This document shows, piece by piece, positions 3,440 to 62,620 of a stretch of DNA of 64,000 bases. Source of the stretch: Candidatus Saccharimonadales bacterium (lineage in GTDB: Bacteria; Patescibacteriota; Saccharimonadia; Saccharimonadales; UBA10212). Position numbers and translations under genes: made by a program. The notes beneath the pieces were generated by a model. That model was not told where the DNA came from. It made no database searches and worked only from the letters and a program-made list of their open reading frames with translations. The stretch is from NCBI GenBank assembly GCA_035758565.1, contig DASTXL010000002.1, positions 275,118-339,117 of the forward strand, read 5' to 3'. Within the stretch, counting starts at the first letter, position 1, and each line of letters starts with the position of its first letter.

Positions 3440-3549
3440 TCGTCGAAGCTTGCGCCACTACCTCGTTTTGCCCGTGGGCAAAAGCTTCGGTTTATGGCTA
3501 CGCTTCTCCTCTCAAGATTTTAAACAGCTACACTTGGTTTAAAATCTTG
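3440..3549 (-). repeat. structured tRNA 5' leader element, copy 1 (abuts tRNA-Lys UUU)
   Basis: Hairpin, then AGAGGAG, GCC, CGAAGC-hairpin(TTTTGCC/GGCAAAA)-CGAGG, GGCGCAAGCTTCGACGA, then tRNA +1. Confidence 0.75.
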
Positions 3550-6396: not shown

Positions 6397-7827
6397 ATGA
6401 GGCGGTACAAAAGAACCACCTTGATAACAGTTGGCTGCCTGGCGGCGCTAGCCGGGCTGGGTCTGGCGCGCAAGCTGCAATTCTTTCCGCCGGAGTGGAT
6501 TTTTATTTTTTGGCCGGCGCTACTCATTCTTCGGCGCCGTACAGCTCTCGGCCTGATTTTGGTAGTAATTTTAGGTTTAGGATTAGGACTCTGGCGCGGC
6601 GCGGCATATAGCCATAAGCTGGCCGAGCTAAAATCGCTAGCTACCCATCCGGTGACAATTGAAGCCACTGCGCTCACAGACTCTGTTTATGGCAACAATT
6701 CGCAGATACAATTTACCGCTAATCAAATTCAGCTAGTCGAACCCTATCAAAAACCACTGGCTGGCACATTTAAAATCAGCGGCTTTGGTGTGCATATGAT
6801 TTATCGAGGCGATCGCGTCGAAGTTTCTGGCAAACTATATCCAACTCGTGGCTCTAATCAAGCGACCATTGCTTATGCTCAGCTGGCCGAAATTTCTACC
6901 GGGCATAGTTTCTTTGCCGATATTTCTAGAAAGTTCACAACTGGCATGCAGAACGCTTTGCCGGAACCTTTAGCTAGTTTTGGGCTTGGTCTTTTGGTGG
7001 GATTGCGAACAATAATGCCGCAGGACATTCTGAATCAATTAACTGCTGTTAGTTTAGTTCACATAGTGGCGGTTAGCGGTTACAACCTAACGATTATTGT
7101 TCGTGGTATTGCCAGGTTAAAAATCCGCTCCAAATACCAAAGAACAATGTTGTCACTGGCTTTAATCGGCCTATTTGTGATGGTGACCGGTTTCAGCGCT
7201 TCAATTATTAGGGCAGCTTTGGTAAGTGCTCTAAGCTTGTGGGCGGCCTACTATGGGCGTCGGGTTAAACCGATGGTGCTTATCAGCTTTGCGGCCGCTC
7301 TGACCGGGCTTATGAACCCATTTTATGTATGGGGCGATTTGAGCTGGTACCTGTCTTTCTTAGCCTTCTTTGGAATTTTAATAATCGCGCCAACTATTCA
7401 GGCGCGGTTGTTTAGCCGGCAGCCAAAATTAATAACAGCTGTGTTGCTAGAAACATTGAGTGCCGAGCTCATGACTCTGCCGTTAATAATGATGAGCTTT
7501 AGTCAGTTGTCGATAATATCTCTGCTCGCTAATCTGTTAGTTGTGCCGCTTGTGCCACTGGCGATGTTACTCGCGGCGACGGCTGCCTTTGTGGGCGCGT
7601 TACTACCTCAACTAGCTGGTTGGTTTGCCTGGCCGGCCGTGGTGTTGCTAACTTATATGCTCGACGTGGTGCATATTCTTGCCAATATTCCATCGGTGCT
7701 ACTACATACATCTATCAGTGTGAATTTAATGCTGACATTCTACGTAATTCTTTTGCTTAGCGTATTGACTATGAGGCGTCGAGCCCGCATGAAATTATCC
7801 GAGATTGAAACTGTGCTAATAAGGTAG
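6397..7827 (+). CDS. comEC: ComEC/Rec2 family DNA uptake channel (no beta-lactamase domain)
   Basis: 476 aa polytopic membrane protein with an N-terminal DUF4131-like region and a competence domain (LVHIVAVSGYNLTI). Confidence 0.75.
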   Translation: MRRYKRTTLITVGCLAALAGLGLARKLQFFPPEWIFIFWPALLILRRRTALGLILVVILGLGLGLWRGAAYSHKLAELKSLATHPVTIEATALTDSVYGNNSQIQFTANQIQLVEPYQKPLAGTFKISGFGVHMIYRGDRVEVSGKLYPTRGSNQATIAYAQLAEISTGHSFFADISRKFTTGMQNALPEPLASFGLGLLVGLRTIMPQDILNQLTAVSLVHIVAVSGYNLTIIVRGIARLKIRSKYQRTMLSLALIGLFVMVTGFSASIIRAALVSALSLWAAYYGRRVKPMVLISFAAALTGLMNPFYVWGDLSWYLSFLAFFGILIIAPTIQARLFSRQPKLITAVLLETLSAELMTLPLIMMSFSQLSIISLLANLLVVPLVPLAMLLAATAAFVGALLPQLAGWFAWPAVVLLTYMLDVVHILANIPSVLLHTSISVNLMLTFYVILLLSVLTMRRRARMKLSEIETVLIR

Positions 7828-7861
7828 CCATAACACCTTAAAATATGTTAAAATAAGTGTA

Positions 7862-12092: not shown

Positions 12093-12117
12093 TGGTGGGG
12101 CTGGTTGGATTTGAACC
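12093..12117 (-). repeat. duplicate of the 3' terminal 25 nt of tRNA-Ile2 (T-arm half, acceptor, CCA)
   Basis: tggtggggctggttggatttgaacc is identical at 12093-12117 and 12138-12162. Confidence 0.85.
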
Positions 12118-12137: not shown

Positions 12138-12213
12138 TGGTGGGGCTGGTTGGATTTGAACCAACGACCAATCAGTTATGAGCCGACTGCTCTAACCCCT
12201 GAGCTACAGCCCC
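12138..12213 (-). tRNA. tRNA with CAU anticodon, probably tRNA-Ile2 (lysidine)
   Basis: 76-nt cloverleaf, loop CTCATAA. Variable/T region TTGGTCGTTGGTTCAAATCC resembles E. coli ileX. tilS is present in the window. Confidence 0.7.
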
Positions 12214-12816: not shown

Positions 12817-12923
12817 CCCCACAAAATCAGCGAAGCGTATTTTGTGGGGTAGAGGAGCAGCCTAACCGTAAACCGAAGCTTTTGCTGAAAAGCAAAACGA
12901 GGTAACGGCGCAAGTTGCGACGA
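12817..12923 (+). repeat. structured tRNA 5' leader element, copy 2 (abuts tRNA-fMet)
   Basis: ccccacaaaat...attttgtgggg hairpin, AGAGGAGCA, CGAAGC-hairpin(GAAA loop)-CGAGG, GGCGCAAGTTGCGACGA. Confidence 0.75.
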
Positions 12924-14587: not shown

Positions 14588-14842
14588 TTAACGATTCTCT
14601 TTAGGGCGGGCCTGGTCGACAGAGATTGTGCGACCACCCAATTCGCTACCATTCATAGCGTCTTGGGCAGCTTTACCTTCGTCGTCGTTTTCGAATTCAA
14701 CGAAGCCAAAACCCTTGCTGCGGCCAGTTTCGCGGTCACGAACAACGGTAGCACTAGCTACGGTGCCGTGGGCAGCGAAAGCGTCGCGCAGTTCGTCGTC
14801 GGTAGTAGCAAAAGGCAAGCCACCTACAAACAATTTGTACAT
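14588..14842 (-). CDS. RRM-type RNA-binding protein
   Basis: RNP-2 LFVGGL and RNP-1 KGFGFVEF. Confidence 0.85.
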   Translation of the reverse strand: MYKLFVGGLPFATTDDELRDAFAAHGTVASATVVRDRETGRSKGFGFVEFENDDEGKAAQDAMNGSELGGRTISVDQARPKENR

Positions 14843-15164: not shown

Positions 15165-15375
15165 AAGTTAAAGTTTTTGAGCACTAACCGGCTTTGCGAG
15201 AGCCGGTTTTTCTTTACTCGCCTAGTCTGCGAGCCTTGAGGTAGGGCGAGTGGGTAGAGTGATAAGCTTGAAAAGCCAAACAAAAAACGCGCCAACTTTA
15301 TTGCGCGATTTAATGCTCGGCTGAAAGGTAAACTTCTGCGCGCAGCTTTGAATATGAGTCCTCTTTTGTACTTTT

Positions 15376-15452
15376 TGGTAGCAGCGACTGGATTCGAACC
15401 AGTGACCGCAGGCTTATGAGTCCTGTGCTCTAACCAACTGAGCTACGCTGCC
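15376..15452 (-). tRNA. elongator tRNA-Met(CAU)
   Basis: 77-nt cloverleaf very similar to E. coli metT (GGC.. GTAGCTCAGTTGGTTAGAGCAC); encoded CCA. Confidence 0.85.
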
Positions 15453-15471
15453 ACAAAAAAGTACAAAACTT

Positions 15472-15497
15472 GTTCTAACCAACTGAGCTACCCTGGC
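15472..15497 (-). pseudogene. orphan tRNA 5' fragment (acceptor 5' strand plus D-arm) fused to leader copy 3
   Basis: GCCAGGGTAGCTCAGTTGGTTAGAAC follows the leader end GCGACGC and stops in the D-arm. Confidence 0.6.
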
Positions 15498-15610
15498 GCG
15501 TCGCAATTTACGCCTCTGCCTCGTTTTGCTATTCGCAAAAACTTCGGCTTGTGGCTAGATTGCTCCTTACAAATTTTACAAGCAAGACAATCACTTGTCT
15601 TGTAAAATTT
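15498..15610 (-). repeat. structured tRNA 5' leader element, copy 3
   Basis: Hairpin with agacaagtgattgtcttgct apex, AAGGAGCA, GCC, CGAAGT-hairpin-CGAGG, GGCGTAAATTGCGACGC. Confidence 0.7.
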
Positions 15611-15673
15611 AAAAATCAACAGGGGGAGTATAGCATTTTAAACTGTTAGTTGCCAGACTGCTAAAATAAGCTT

Positions 15674-16174
15674 ATGCAAACCACAGACCAGAAACAGGAT
15701 ATTGTCGATCGGGCTTTTAAAATCAGTCTGATTCTAAAAGGTCTGGACGGCTTGCTAGAAATTTTGAGCGGGCTTTTGCTTCTTGCCATAAGGCCGGAAC
15801 AAATTCAAAAGATCTCACACCACTTAACCGACTCGACGTTGGCGCGCAGTCCACACTCCTTCTGGGCCAGTCATGTTGCTACTTGGGCGTCTAACTTAGG
15901 TAAGGGGTCATTGATTTTCGGAGCAATTTATTTATTGAGTCACGGTATCGTAAAACTTTTTGTAGTCGTGCAGGTCTGGCGCAATAAATCCTGGGCCTAT
16001 CCGCTGCTATTGATTGTCATTGGGTTATTCGTTATATACCAGGTTTATTATTTGATTTTCAAAAAAGTCACGGCCGGCATGATTGCGCTAACTGTTTTCG
16101 ATCTAATAATTATTTATCTGACGTTTATCGAATATCGCCGGCACAAAGCTCGGCACAACTTTGCCGATAGCTAG
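15674..16174 (+). CDS. DUF2127-like membrane protein
   Basis: 166 aa, 4 TM. Confidence 0.45.
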   Translation: MQTTDQKQDIVDRAFKISLILKGLDGLLEILSGLLLLAIRPEQIQKISHHLTDSTLARSPHSFWASHVATWASNLGKGSLIFGAIYLLSHGIVKLFVVVQVWRNKSWAYPLLLIVIGLFVIYQVYYLIFKKVTAGMIALTVFDLIIIYLTFIEYRRHKARHNFADS

Positions 16175-31497: not shown

Positions 31498-31944
31498 ATG
31501 ATCAAAGCTATTCTGTTCGATAACGACGGGGTAATGTCTAAGTGGTTATTGCCCCGGTTTAGAATGCGGCGGCTGGCTAAGCAGCTTAGGCAAGATGGAA
31601 TCAAGGTTGGCATGCTGTCTAATGTCATCTGGGGGTTTGCGCAAGTTTATAAGTTAACGCGAGGCTATGACGGCTACGATTTAGTACTGCTGTCGTATAA
31701 AGAAAAAATGTCTAAACCCAATCCGGACTTTTATATGCTGGCGGTTAAAAAATTTGGCTTAAAACCTCACGAAATACTTTTTGTCGACAACCGAGAGGAT
31801 CTACTTGTTCCCGCTCAAAAGCTTGGTTTCAAAACCCTGCACTCCAAATCGGCCAGACAACTGCTTGTAGATATCAATCATTTGTTAAGCAAAGAAAATA
31901 AAAGACCGCCTAAAAGACACCCGCATCTAATTGGGCGAGGATAG
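31498..31944 (+). CDS. short HAD-superfamily hydrolase-like protein
   Basis: LFDNDGV motif I, SKPNPD, VDN. Confidence 0.5.
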   Translation: MIKAILFDNDGVMSKWLLPRFRMRRLAKQLRQDGIKVGMLSNVIWGFAQVYKLTRGYDGYDLVLLSYKEKMSKPNPDFYMLAVKKFGLKPHEILFVDNREDLLVPAQKLGFKTLHSKSARQLLVDINHLLSKENKRPPKRHPHLIGRG

Positions 31945-32066
31945 AGGACAACGCTTTCGCTTGCTCCACCGAACCTCCGACTATTGTCAGCTTCGCCGCC
32001 GAGTGGCAGACCGGGCCTTATCTCAAAGATAAAAATAAGCTCACCAAAAGGTGGGCGTATTTTTTA

Positions 32067-32143: not shown

Positions 32144-32258
32144 TCGTCGGAATTTGCGGCTTTTCCTCGTTTTGCGGTTCCGCAAAAGCTTCGGTCTAAG
32201 CCTAGATTCCTCCTCTCAATTTAACAAAAATTGCTAAAGCGGATTTTTGTTAAATTGG
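32144..32258 (-). repeat. structured tRNA 5' leader element, copy 4
   Basis: Hairpin, AGAGGAGGA, GGC, CGAAGC-hairpin-CGAGG, GCCGCAAATTCCGACGA. Confidence 0.75.
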
Positions 32259-33348: not shown

Positions 33349-33523
33349 ATAAAAGCTGACCAATAAAATTTGGTCAGTTTTTATTTATTGAGAGTACAAC
33401 TTAAACCGATAGGCATGAATAGCCAGTTGGCTGTTCATGTTTTCCTTGCTTGACCGCCTTGCGCAATTGCTTTAGCAATTTTGTCGCAGGCGCATGATAA
33501 CTCAAGTCCTCTCACCCCGACCA
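33349..33523 (+). repeat. tRNA-trailing module: terminator, ~150-nt insert, then 22-nt repeat of the tRNA-Pro(CGG) 3' end
   Basis: tcaagtcctctcaccccgacca at 33327-33348 and 33502-33523. Confidence 0.8.
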
Positions 33524-34695: not shown

Positions 34696-34773
34696 TGGGG
34701 CGAAAGATGGGACTTGAACCCACGGCCTCCGGAGCCACAATCCAGCGCTCTAACCAACTGAGCTACTTCCGCC
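34696..34773 (-). tRNA. tRNA-His(GUG) with encoded G-1
   Basis: Loop TTGTGGC; extra 5' G opposite discriminator C; encoded CCA. Confidence 0.9.
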
Positions 34774-34890
34774 ACGTCCTCCCGTACGCCATTATCTCGT
34801 TTTGCCGCAGTAGCGTCAAAAACTTCGATTTATGGCTGCGGTCGTCCTCTCAATTTTGCAAAATCAGCGTAAGATGATTTTGCAAAATTG
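34774..34890 (-). repeat. structured tRNA 5' leader element, copy 5 (divergent 3' end)
   Basis: Hairpin, AGAGGACGA, GCC, CGAAGT-hairpin-CGAG, GGCGTACGGGAGGACGT. Confidence 0.7.
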
Positions 34891-35945: not shown

Positions 35946-36122
35946 TGGTACCCCCCGGCAAGATAGCGCCACGCTTCTCCGCTCACAAATGCTCGGAATA
36001 AATTCCTGCGCGTTTGTTCGCTGCGCCGAACTTGCGACTTGCGTCAGCTGTCGCTGCCGCGTCGCAAAACCGAATCTGTCAGAAGACCATAAAAATAGCC
36101 CAGACAAGCTGGGATATTTTTA
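35946..36122 (-). repeat. tRNA-trailing module behind tRNA-Arg(UCU), ending in a repeat of its 3' end
   Basis: tggtaccccccggcaagat (35946-35964) versus tggtacccccggcaagat (36123-36140); internal gcaagttcg T-arm half at 36027-36035. Confidence 0.8.
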
Positions 36123-36199: not shown

Positions 36200-36313
36200 T
36201 CGTCGAAGCTTGCGGCCTTGTCTCGTTTTGCCTGCTCGGCAAAAGCTTCGACCTTGGCCTAGGCTTCTCCTCTAAAATTTGTGAGCAAGACAACTACTTG
36301 CCTCACAAATTTT
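36200..36313 (-). repeat. structured tRNA 5' leader element, copy 6
   Basis: Hairpin with aggcaagtagttgtcttgct apex, AGAGGAGAA, GGCC, CGAAGC-hairpin-CGAG, GGCCGCAAGCTTCGACGA. Confidence 0.75.
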
Positions 36314-36372: not shown

Positions 36373-36468
36373 CCCCACAAAATAAATTTTGCAGGGAAAC
36401 CCTAGCTCTATAGGAAAAAGAGCAGCGAGCTTGGTTTTGCTTAAGGCAAAACTCGGCTTTGCCGACGA
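36373..36468 (+). repeat. degenerate orphan copy of the leader element (no tRNA follows)
   Basis: ccccacaaaataaattttgcaggg hairpin ... AAGAGCA ... GGTTTTGcttaagGCAAAAC ... GCCGACGA. The opposite strand carries AGAGGAG next to the same hairpin. Confidence 0.4.
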
Positions 36469-42253: not shown

Positions 42254-42432
42254 AAATAAAACCTCCAGCTTGTCTGGGTTTTTGTTTTGGTAATTCTGCC
42301 CGGCAGAATTGAACCGCCGAGGCGGTGCGGCGTAGTGAAAATCGCGCGCAAGAATTTATTCTGAGCACGATTGAACGAAGAAGTGCTTGCTCAGAGAGCA
42401 AGTGTGCGATATCCGTCCGCGGGTACCAAAAT
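42254..42432 (+). repeat. tRNA-trailing module behind tRNA-Arg(UCG), ending in a 22-nt repeat of its 3' end
   Basis: atccgtccgcgggtaccaaaat at 42236-42257 and 42411-42432; internal ggcggtgcg T-arm half at 42321-42329. Confidence 0.8.
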
Positions 42433-44751: not shown

Positions 44752-44866
44752 AAAAATTTGCGAGACAAGTAATTGTCTTGCTCGCAATTTTTAAGAGGAG
44801 CAACCTAGCCTAAAAACGAAGCTTTTGTCTATAGACAAAACGAGTTATAGGCGCAGGTTGCGACGA
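44752..44866 (+). repeat. structured tRNA 5' leader element, copy 7
   Basis: Hairpin with agacaagtaattgtcttgct apex, AGAGGAGCA, GCCT, CGAAGC-hairpin-CGAG, AGGCGCAGGTTGCGACGA. Confidence 0.75.
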
Positions 44867-44943: not shown

Positions 44944-45132
44944 AAAATAGAGCCGCACTTTAGGTGCGGTTTTGTTTTTGGAACGCTTAATCGAGCAAGC
45001 CAACTGCTTGGCTTGCGTGGGGCTCGAACAGGCGCAGCGATGTCGAACAATTCAGCGAGACCGCGAGCCGGGCCCGCGAGCGAAAAGCAAAGCTTTTCGA
45101 CTTGTGGGTCGAAGTCCCCGATGGCCCTCCAA
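44944..45132 (+). repeat. tRNA-trailing module behind tRNA-Lys(CUU), ending in a 20-nt repeat of its 3' end
   Basis: agtccccgatggccctccaa at 44925-44944 and 45113-45132; extra T-arm half GGGGCTCGAA at 45019-45028. Confidence 0.8.
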
Positions 45133-52811: not shown

Positions 52812-52918
52812 CAGAAACATAAGACAAGTAATTGTCTTGCTTGTGTTTCTGGAAGGAGCAATCTAGCGCTAGGCGAAATTTTATTTATAAAATAGAGCAA
52901 GCGTGTAAATTGCGACGT
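52812..52918 (+). repeat. structured tRNA 5' leader element, copy 8 (variant hairpin 2)
   Basis: Hairpin with agacaagtaattgtcttgct apex, GAAGGAGCA, GCGC, CGAAATTTTAT-tta-ATAAAAT, GCGTGTAAATTGCGACGT. Confidence 0.7.
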
Positions 52919-53133
52919 GGTCCCATCGTCTAGCGGTTAGGACACCGGGTACCTTCACCCCACAAAACAAGTTTTGCGGGGACCCCGATCATTCCGGCAA
53001 CAGGGTGAGAACTGCCATTTGGCAGTTCGCAAGGCCACAGGCGCGACGGCGCCGAGGAGGGCCCGACCGAATTTTCAGCAGAAAATTACGGGTGGGTCGA
53101 TTCCGAATCGAACGTATACAATTAGTCGACAAT
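52919..53133 (+). pseudogene. disrupted tRNA-Glu copy: intact 5' half, then degenerate pieces of the remainder separated by hairpin-containing inserts
   Basis: 52919-52950 is identical to 53134-53165. CATTCCGGCAACAGGGT and GGGTCGATTCC match later parts of tRNA-Glu. Confidence 0.55.
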
Positions 53134-53208
<75 letters not shown>

Positions 53209-62499: not shown

Positions 62500-62620
62500 A
62501 AATTTTCTAAGCCAGCGAGCGGCTTTGCCGACTCGAGCGCTTAGGAAATTTAGAGGAAGAACAAAGTCGTAAGTTGAAGTCTTGATATTCAAAACGAAAC
62601 AACGGCGCAAGTTCTGACGA
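62500..62620 (+). repeat. structured leader element, copy 9, abutting the tmRNA 5' end
   Basis: Long hairpin, AGAGGAAGA, GTCG, TGAAGTCTTGAtatTCAAAACGA, CGGCGCAAGTTCTGACGA, then GGGGCTGA. Promoter TTGGAA-18-TATAAT at 62420-62449. Confidence 0.7.

Follow-up and report, generated by a model that had tools for sequence, protein, structure and literature searches.

In homology-facilitated illegitimate recombination, one homologous segment anchors the foreign DNA, the other end of which is joined without homology, and the recipient gene is left partly duplicated or truncated. In Nanoarchaeum, the 5' half of split transfer RNA (tRNA) genes is encoded apart from the 3' half. The former term is in current use (for example, PMC8116780, PMC13344027). 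Displaced tRNA-gene fragments mark the ends of genomic islands (tDNA integration; Islander database, PMC4383910), and the leader-trailer helix of bacterial precursor ribosomal RNA (pre-rRNA) is cut by ribonuclease III (RNase III; PMC10250234). Here we describe an elongator tRNA-Met locus of a Candidatus Saccharimonadales bacterium, located in a 64,000-nucleotide stretch of contig DASTXL010000002.1 (the whole of which is called the window), in which a complete tRNA-Met gene lies behind the first 24 nucleotides (nt) of a different tRNA-Met allele fused to a structured leader. The locus is probably the scar of an allele replacement.

The locus is read on the minus strand in the order promoter, hairpin, 73-nt leader, the first 24 nt of an allele that we call type A, 21 nt, a complete tRNA-Met of a second allele, type B, and a trailer. 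The type-A relic (GCCAGGGTAGCTCAGTTGGTTAGA, 15474-15497) comprises the acceptor 5' strand and most of the D arm, and is preceded directly by the leader (15498-15570), which ends in GACGC at fragment position -1. The type-B elongator gene (15376-15452; anticodon CAT, CCA encoded) was called intact by ARAGORN and scored 68.9 bits against the Rfam tRNA model. The 21 nt that separate the two (15453-15473; ACAAG-TTTTGTACTTTT-TTGT) contain the left arm of a 12-bp inverted repeat, TTTTGTACTTTT, at 15457-15468, 4 nt before the tRNA, and its exact reverse complement, AAAAGTACAAAA (15364-15375; 12/12 complementary), starts 0 nt after the CCA. A preliminary description had reported this order, the tRNA-Met, the exact repeat at 4 and 0 nt and the leader-fused fragment, all of which were borne out. 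The fragment, taken with the two nucleotides that follow it (GCCAGGGTAGCTCAGTTGGTTAGAAC, 15472-15497), does share an exact 18-mer with the intact tRNA, and a 10-nt direct copy of the anticodon arm, AGGACTCATA, is indeed present downstream (15353-15362), with one G between it and the right arm. The fragment had rightly been taken for a 5' piece of another tRNA, but its true match is 24 nt long, and the AC that follows is the junction rather than a mutated D stem.

An intact tRNA gene beside a same-sense partial copy that marks a past DNA insertion is a feature shared with Islander-type fragments; however, the piece found here is a 5' end of the other allele lying 21 nt away, the intact gene is not composite, and there is neither an integrase nor an island. 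The attachment of a tRNA 5' part to leader-like sequence, apart from a 3' half, also resembles the arrangement in Nanoarchaeum, but this is a bacterium, no matching 3' half and no bulge-helix-bulge or splicing-endonuclease context accompanies the fragment, and a complete tRNA adjoins it. With its truncated gene and its novel joint, from nt 24 of type A to nt -21 of the type-B flank, in unique sequence, the locus may be compared with the products of homology-facilitated illegitimate recombination, a putative mechanism that is read here from the product.

The locus sits between a gene for an RRM protein (14588-14842, minus strand) and a DUF2127 gene (15674-16174, plus strand). Syntenic RRM/DUF2127 loci of relatives were collected via DUF2127 homologues, and the tRNA-Met alleles were also sought by one exact scan each of genome and metagenome collections; the comparison set consists of 21 loci besides that of the window (22 in all, labelled L001 to L022). 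The nearest relatives were at most 78% identical in protein sequence (DUF2127 homologues), and the identical DUF2127 protein is known from one other contig only. In the Logan assembly SRR25158471 (L001), the leader, the fragment and the left arm are identical to those of the window, and the contig stops inside the tRNA. The junction thus exists at the read level, although SRR25158471 may be the data from which the metagenome-assembled genome itself was made.

Type A has the acceptor GCCAGGG/CCCTGGT and the T stem GCGAG, and was found in L004, L005, L008, L009, L010, L012 and L014; it is the common Saccharimonadales allele, counted in five further Saccharimonadales genomes besides L004, L005 and L014. 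The fragment is identical to the type-A allele of all these loci at 24 of 24 positions. In L004 and L005, type A lies at the same syntenic locus and in the same orientation, without the leader core, and in L014 (GCA_964402725.1) the locus has an intact type A joined at +1 to the hairpin and leader seen in the window. Homology on the promoter and DUF2127 side extends to all relatives. These observations support the earlier proposal that one tRNA-Met was replaced by another behind a retained leader. In the strain comparison that had been asked for, type A is intact at the locus in L004, L005 and L014, and the 24-nt fragment itself was seen in no relative, L002, L003, L004, L013 and L014 all being arranged differently at this point, as is expected for a scar. 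Alleles differing from type A in the T arm only came from two bins labelled as other phyla.

Type B has the acceptor GGCAGCG/CGCTGCT and the T stem ACTGG. It differs from type A at 10 positions, which make up five base pairs, all of them compensated with Watson-Crick pairing kept, and L006 carries an intermediate allele in which one of the five pairs is changed. Because of this compensation and of the intermediate, type B is taken as a functional allele of the same tRNA. It is also rare. The window gene is identical to those of L002 and L013 and to the visible part of the genes in L015-17; these loci, the window and a 5' half in L003 were the only places in which type B was found, and an exact scan of a 185,579-species genome set did not detect it. 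A phage origin was considered and rejected, since an exact scan of viral contigs gave no match. The preliminary description had placed a crossover in the shared D arm, which would yield a single chimeric tRNA; the incoming gene is instead complete: its two acceptor strands are both type B, and it has 21 nt of 5' flank of its own.

That flank was recognized by comparison. In L013, where type B follows a plain promoter in other surroundings, the 17 nt of 5' flank closest to the tRNA (GTTTCGCACTTTTTTGT) match those of the window (GTTTTGTACTTTTTTGT) at 15 positions. On the 3' side, AAAAATACAAAA stands directly after ACCA in L015-17 and is identical to the right arm at 11 of 12 positions, and L002 has ACCA-CG-AAAAGTACAA, in which the right arm is matched at 10 of 10 positions with a 2-nt shift (CCA + 2 nt). 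L013 carries the left arm only and L002 the right arm only; the left flank is out of view in L015-17, L003 has the leader fused directly to type B with no left arm, and no genome besides the window shows both arms together. Among the 21 other loci, the exact 12-mer pair was present in none but L001, which is of the same strain. Because each arm occurs separately beside type B in other genomes, the arms are the two native flanks of type B, older than the joining event, and the repeat loses its proposed role as the mark or the result of an insertion.

We consider that the locus is the scar of a tRNA-Met allele replacement by illegitimate recombination, and put the probability of this reading at about 0.65. 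In the original state, the promoter, hairpin and 74-nt leader would have been followed by type A fused at +1 and divergent from DUF2127, as in L014. One recombination event would have joined nt 24 of the type-A gene to a block from a type-B lineage that comprised the complete type-B gene between its native flanks, roughly 21 nt on the 5' side and 12 nt or more on the 3' side. Natural competence is known in Saccharibacteria (PMC10633639), and thus DNA uptake with homology-facilitated illegitimate recombination is a plausible route; most likely, the DNA would have been taken up from another member of the Saccharimonadales and integrated by a single homologous crossover within the conserved flank and a single illegitimate joint. 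As to direction, type B may have entered the A locus, or a promoter-leader-A(1-24) module may have entered the B locus. That the fragment is undecayed and the leader intact argues that the event was recent.

The sole plausibly placed promoter-like site upstream of the whole unit is of the extended -10 type (CTGGCA, 18 nt, TG-n-TATACT; 15627-15656), and its -10 region is kept in L002, L003, L004 and L014. It is followed by the hairpin H0 (15571-15610), a 12-bp perfect stem (AAATTTTACAAG / CTTGTAAAATTT) of a kind that also precedes the leader core at other tRNAs. Because no promoter-like site was found between the leader and the type-B gene, we infer that leader, fragment and tRNA-Met form one transcription unit. 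It would end with a variant (GCGCGCA...GAGCA, 15314-15343) of a trailer motif found downstream of other tRNAs in the clade and with a terminator-like hairpin (CGCGC...GCGCG then T6, 15282-15310), which was read by eye, a simple scan having given no call. From the retained promoter, a single precursor of about 330-350 nt would be made, consisting of hairpin, leader, dead fragment, tRNA and trailer. Because it is without a 3' half, the fragment would not be a substrate of RNase P, and leader and fragment would act merely as a long 5' leader of type B. The paired flanks would fold type B as an independent unit, yet they would also bury nt -1 to -4 and the ACCA, so that maturation would probably require removal of the trailer or a double-strand cut of the RNase III type before RNase P could act.

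Several points weigh against this reading of the locus. The relatives are no closer than about 78% in protein identity, and neither the parent states nor the direction of the event were directly observed. The conserved type-B block and the arms end within 1-2 nt of each other, as a mobile cassette would also predict, and each arm is kept beside type B whereas the sequence beyond it is not, which could mean selection for a leader-trailer helix. No RNase III signature was found in the window, a result that is uninformative for the rest of the genome. The recombination mechanism itself would have to be accepted as a deduction from its product. Lastly, the anticodon-arm copy calls for an extra assumption: it may be what remains of a split type A, or an older feature shared with L002, which has AGGTCGCTTG at the homologous place (6/10 match). 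By a rough estimate, a 10-mer within 100 nt would be found by chance in about 1% of cases. A longer remainder of the old tRNA beyond the 10-mer was sought and rejected, since the similarity of this region to the tRNA 3' half was like that of shuffled sequences (p = 0.39 local, 0.72 global).

With the acceptor stem and the four flanking bases included, the arms of the repeat span 23 nt and are 91% complementary. As far as the 64 kb go, the 12-mer is more than a widespread A/T coincidence, since it occurs there at these two places only. When a frame of 25 nt + 77 nt + 25 nt was slid over the window, complementarity of at least 12 nt was reached at 5 of 63,873 offsets, all of them at this tRNA; the flanks of the other 11 window tRNAs were complementary over only 3-7 nt. 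The same inverted repeat was found at none of these 11 and at none of the 21 loci bar L001. In the minimum-free-energy fold of the precursor, the cloverleaf was kept on a 13-bp extension (z = -4.7; none of 200 shuffles was as stable), and the centroid fold likewise retained the extended helix. The predicted flank pairing amounts to 16 bp with one U-C mismatch, stacked on the 7-bp acceptor stem, and is made up of the pairs U-1:A73, G-2:C74 and U-4:A76 in addition to the 12 bp. No significant leader-trailer helix was predicted for L002 and L013, which have the same tRNA and both flanks visible (z = -0.2 and -0.5). A processing stem, as suggested earlier, is possible given the long helix predicted for the window precursor, but such a stem is not conserved in L002 and L013 and is absent at other tRNAs.

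One could envisage that selection maintains the repeat as a leader-trailer processing stalk in the type-B precursor, whose 23-bp helix is cut by RNase III to free the tRNA behind the dead fragment. The long helix is almost perfect and has no counterpart in the window, and each arm is kept beside type B elsewhere next to unrelated sequence. Moreover, the left arm of L013 ends in GG and the right arm of L015 in CC, which fits an ancestral 18-nt pairing, and burial of the RNase P site and the CCA seems to make prior cleavage necessary, as judged from what is known of RNase P substrates. As in pre-rRNA, the flanks of a stable RNA would pair into a long helix (23 bp with the acceptor stem) that offers a possible double-strand cleavage site; unlike the pre-rRNA helix, this one surrounds a single tRNA, is a predicted one, is unconserved in the relatives examined, and would hinder RNase P unless removed first. 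Selection for the stalk is also difficult to reconcile with the lack of a significant helix in L002 and L013, with the direct joining of leader to type B in L003, and with the 11 other tRNAs that do without such a stem; no covariation between the arms could be observed. We regard this explanation as unlikely.

An extension of the same idea, which we find doubtful, is that type B and its complementary flanks are a self-contained portable unit that a double-strand RNase can cut out of any transcript. If true, it would explain why type B occurs in four or more genomic contexts and points either way relative to DUF2127 among close relatives, why the conserved block ends at the arms, how the gene functions behind a dead fragment, and how it can stand behind a leader whose usual place is directly at the RNase P site. 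In a wider version, hairpin, 74-nt leader, tRNA and trailer motif would be interchangeable modules of which the tRNA genes of the clade are built, shuffled by tRNA-anchored recombination.

The orientation of type B differs even between sister genomes. L002 (2775-2851) and L015 (1-70), whose DJ-1 and DUF2127 proteins are 88% and 81% identical, have the same type B in opposite orientations beside DUF2127, and therefore the tRNA transcription unit has been inverted or re-inserted recently. A simple flip between the repeat arms was rejected as the cause of the L015-17 orientation, as the DNA outside the arm is unrelated to both the window and the L002 context.

The tRNA-Met locus is not the only one in which a partial tRNA copy accompanies an intact gene. 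A 5' fragment starting at tRNA +1 and followed by an insert and an intact tRNA was found in four cases, namely tRNA-Glu and tRNA-Met of the window, tRNA-Met of L010 and tRNA-Glu of L019. In the window tRNA-Glu region (52851-53208, plus strand), the leader is fused to nt 1-32 of tRNA-Glu (32/32 identical). A 39-nt hairpin then replaces the anticodon, the copy resumes with nt 36-51, and a stretch of about 130 nt that includes a degenerate leader-like element leads to the intact tRNA-Glu; L021 has an undisturbed leader-Glu fusion. In L019, the promoter is followed by 9 nt of Glu, a 32-nt piece in which there is a second TAAAAT box, and an intact Glu gene, and L010 has the promoter, 12 nt of tRNA-Met, about 80 nt and an intact tRNA-Met. 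Partial tRNA copies are thus common in the clade, differ between relatives and always leave one intact gene, which is the behavior of scars and not of a conserved device.

The tRNA-Glu case, which looks like a tandem duplicate with a broken first copy and a degenerate second leader-like element before the intact one, lends some color to the view that an ancestral tandem pair, leader-A followed by B, decayed differentially, the window having lost the 3' two-thirds of A, L004 and L014 having lost B, and L002 having lost A. The second TAAAAT box within the L019 insert can be cited in the same sense. This history is nonetheless improbable: no genome examined has both A and B intact, and the occurrence of A and B at the same locus in different lineages, together with the intermediate in L006, argues that they are alleles rather than paralogues. 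The undecayed fragment and intact leader, which point to a recent event, do not suit it either.

We also consider improbable the possibility that the tRNA and its 12-bp terminal repeats constitute a small mobile cassette, either invertible or like a miniature inverted-repeat transposable element (MITE), inserted in the anticodon stem of a resident tRNA-Met, with the dinucleotide AG as the target duplication. Perfect 12-bp terminal inverted repeats that bound a block of about 105 nt inside another gene are indeed MITE-like, the conserved type-B block stops where the arms stop, an anticodon-arm piece lies just beyond the right arm, and the many contexts and both orientations of type B, even between the sisters L002 and L015, would be expected of a mobile unit. 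Against a cassette boundary stands the lack of extra copies: the 12-mer pair is single-copy in the window and confined, among the other loci, to the same strain, and the arms occur separately in L013 (left) and L002 (right). Type B was absent from viral contigs, no transposase or recombinase lies nearby, and the cargo would be an essential tRNA. The AG is shared at both borders, but a 2-nt duplication is indistinguishable from chance and gives no clear target duplication.

A remnant of integrase-mediated insertion with a regenerated target and a displaced fragment, or an assembly chimera of two strains, can be dismissed as most improbable: displaced fragments beside regenerated tRNAs are a hallmark of tDNA-integrating islands (PMC4383910), the 25-nt 3' copy after the tRNA at 12138-12213 looks att-like, and metagenome contigs can be chimeric at tRNAs, as L003 is, but integration would give a chimeric tRNA, whereas the acceptor strands and T stem here are all type B and the displaced piece is type A (C2, G6), no integrase is present, the island would span only 21 nt, and the junction lies in unique sequence rather than a shared k-mer and is reproduced by a second assembly.

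The scar itself is modest and is a variant of known tRNA-gene scars. It records the exchange of an essential tRNA gene, probably present in one copy, in a reduced Patescibacteria genome, and both alleles, old and new, can still be read. Together with the tRNA-Glu case and the 3'-end copies described below, it suggests a role for conserved tRNA sequence in anchoring recombination in these naturally competent bacteria. Such fragments can also mislead tRNA annotation and break or mis-join metagenome assemblies. The contigs L001, L005, L014 and L015-17 all stop inside the tRNA-Met of this locus, which breaks assemblies. In L003 (580-660, minus strand), the 5' half of type B, with the leader before it, continues into a 3' half whose acceptor (CGGGCCC) does not match, and then into GC-rich foreign DNA; the possibility that this is a genuine leader-B gene with a mismatched acceptor was rejected in favor of an assembly chimera, given that the downstream DNA is GC-rich and non-syntenic and that another contig with the same protein keeps synteny. 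Only the 5' half of L003 entered the comparisons.

A by-product more interesting than the scar is the leader, which belongs to an uncatalogued family in front of tRNAs and transfer-messenger RNA (tmRNA). The preliminary description had spoken of a retained leader, and a covariance model shows this leader to be a real shared module. Seven of the 12 window tRNAs share an element of about 74 nt that ends in GACGN exactly at tRNA position -1. The model detected ten copies in the window, including those at 3440-3513, 15498-15570, 32144-32217, 34774-34851 and 36200-36274 on the minus strand and at 12850-12923, 44793-44866, 52851-52918 (before the Glu fragment) and 62551-62620 (directly before tmRNA) on the plus strand, with further copies in L003 (661-734), L014 (44-116) and L021 (1794-1870). 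The leader precedes Lys-UUU, initiator Met, Pro-UGG, His, Arg-UCU, Lys-CUU, the Met fragment, tmRNA and the 32-nt Glu fragment. It is folded into four nested helices (P1-P4). Over 12 leader sequences, 94% of the cells pair and 19 of 23 pairs are changed on both sides, compared with 33-41% in slid controls. The copy before the Met fragment is structurally intact, ranking seventh of 12 copies with 84 bits, and that before the Glu fragment is the most degenerate, with 46.6 bits. The leader had no match in Rfam 15, and we found no description of it in the literature on Saccharibacteria or Patescibacteria tRNA leader motifs. The family was absent from L006 and L008-L013 and seems confined to a subclade.

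All complete RNAs behind the leader here are tRNAs or tmRNA, which are RNase P substrates, and the leader is likely tied to such substrates. The leader of tRNA-His (34772-34778, minus strand) ends in GACGT and is followed by an encoded G-1, which fits RNase P cleavage between -2 and -1 and a leader that is in register with the cleavage site. At the tRNA-Met locus, the leader is uncoupled from the RNase P site, and the locus thus offers a handle on leader function.

The leader is usually preceded by a hairpin and GAGGAG. In front of some leaders, the hairpin is a palindrome (GGGGTCCCCACAAAAT...ATTTTGTGGGG), which is also present, inverted, in the broken tRNA-Glu copy, as well as in the L010 insert between the 12-nt Met fragment and the intact gene. 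Its occurrences are at 12817-12849, 36373-36396 and 52958-52981 of the window, near L004 2885-2910 and upstream of the L010 tRNA-Met (7782-7858, minus strand). The palindrome may be a small repeated or mobile element. A second type of hairpin (ACAAGACAAGTnATTGTCTTGCT) precedes the remaining leaders.

As to the surroundings, the window contains 12 dispersed tRNA genes and one tmRNA (ARAGORN, Rfam). Genes of the neighborhood encode Dus, DivIC, a sigma factor, a LysM-transglycosylase, DJ-1, TilS and FtsH. Within about 5 kb of the locus, Pfam gave Dus, DivIC, sigma-70, LysM/transglycosylase, RRM and DUF2127, and no recombinase, transposase or integrase; the neighboring RRM protein is not on record. 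In L018, DUF2127 adjoins a glutamate dehydrogenase gene, and the tRNA-Met, about 1.3 kb off, is at the contig end; L022 has the same glutamate dehydrogenase neighbor, with no tRNA in the 280 nt visible upstream, and these two loci were uninformative. Rfam (release 15) searches at the gathering threshold, and with permissive E-values on the Met, Glu and trailer regions, returned only tRNA and tmRNA.

Six of the 12 window tRNAs (Ile2-like CAT, Pro-UGG, Pro-CGG, Arg-UCU, Arg-UCG and Lys-CUU) are followed, 20-180 nt downstream and in the same sense, by an 18-25-nt copy of their own 3' end, from T loop to CCA. These copies lie at 12093-12117, 31939-31981, 33502-33523, 35946-35964 and 36027-36038, 42411-42428, and 45113-45131; some of them also carry the T-stem 5' strand and an insert of 10-62 nt in the T loop, and L021 has a 3'-end copy after tRNA-Glu, too. 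The tRNA at 12138-12213 was called tRNA-Met by ARAGORN and is read here as tRNA-Ile2; its 25-nt 3' copy begins 20 nt after it. The 3'-end copies may represent scars, either att-like or left by recombination, or else a functional element. The trailer motif, which had no match in Rfam, occurs in its exact form (GCGCA-N4-TTTA-N4-GAGCA) four times in the sequences examined, each time downstream of a tRNA and between the terminator and the 3'-end copy: at 35990-36011 (minus strand) and 42346-42367 (plus strand) in the window, at 1769-1790 in L019 and at 2033-2054 in L021. The hairpin of the motif covaries, with the stems AGAAT/ATTCT, GGAAT/ATTCC, AAAGT/ACTTT and GGTGT/ACACC.

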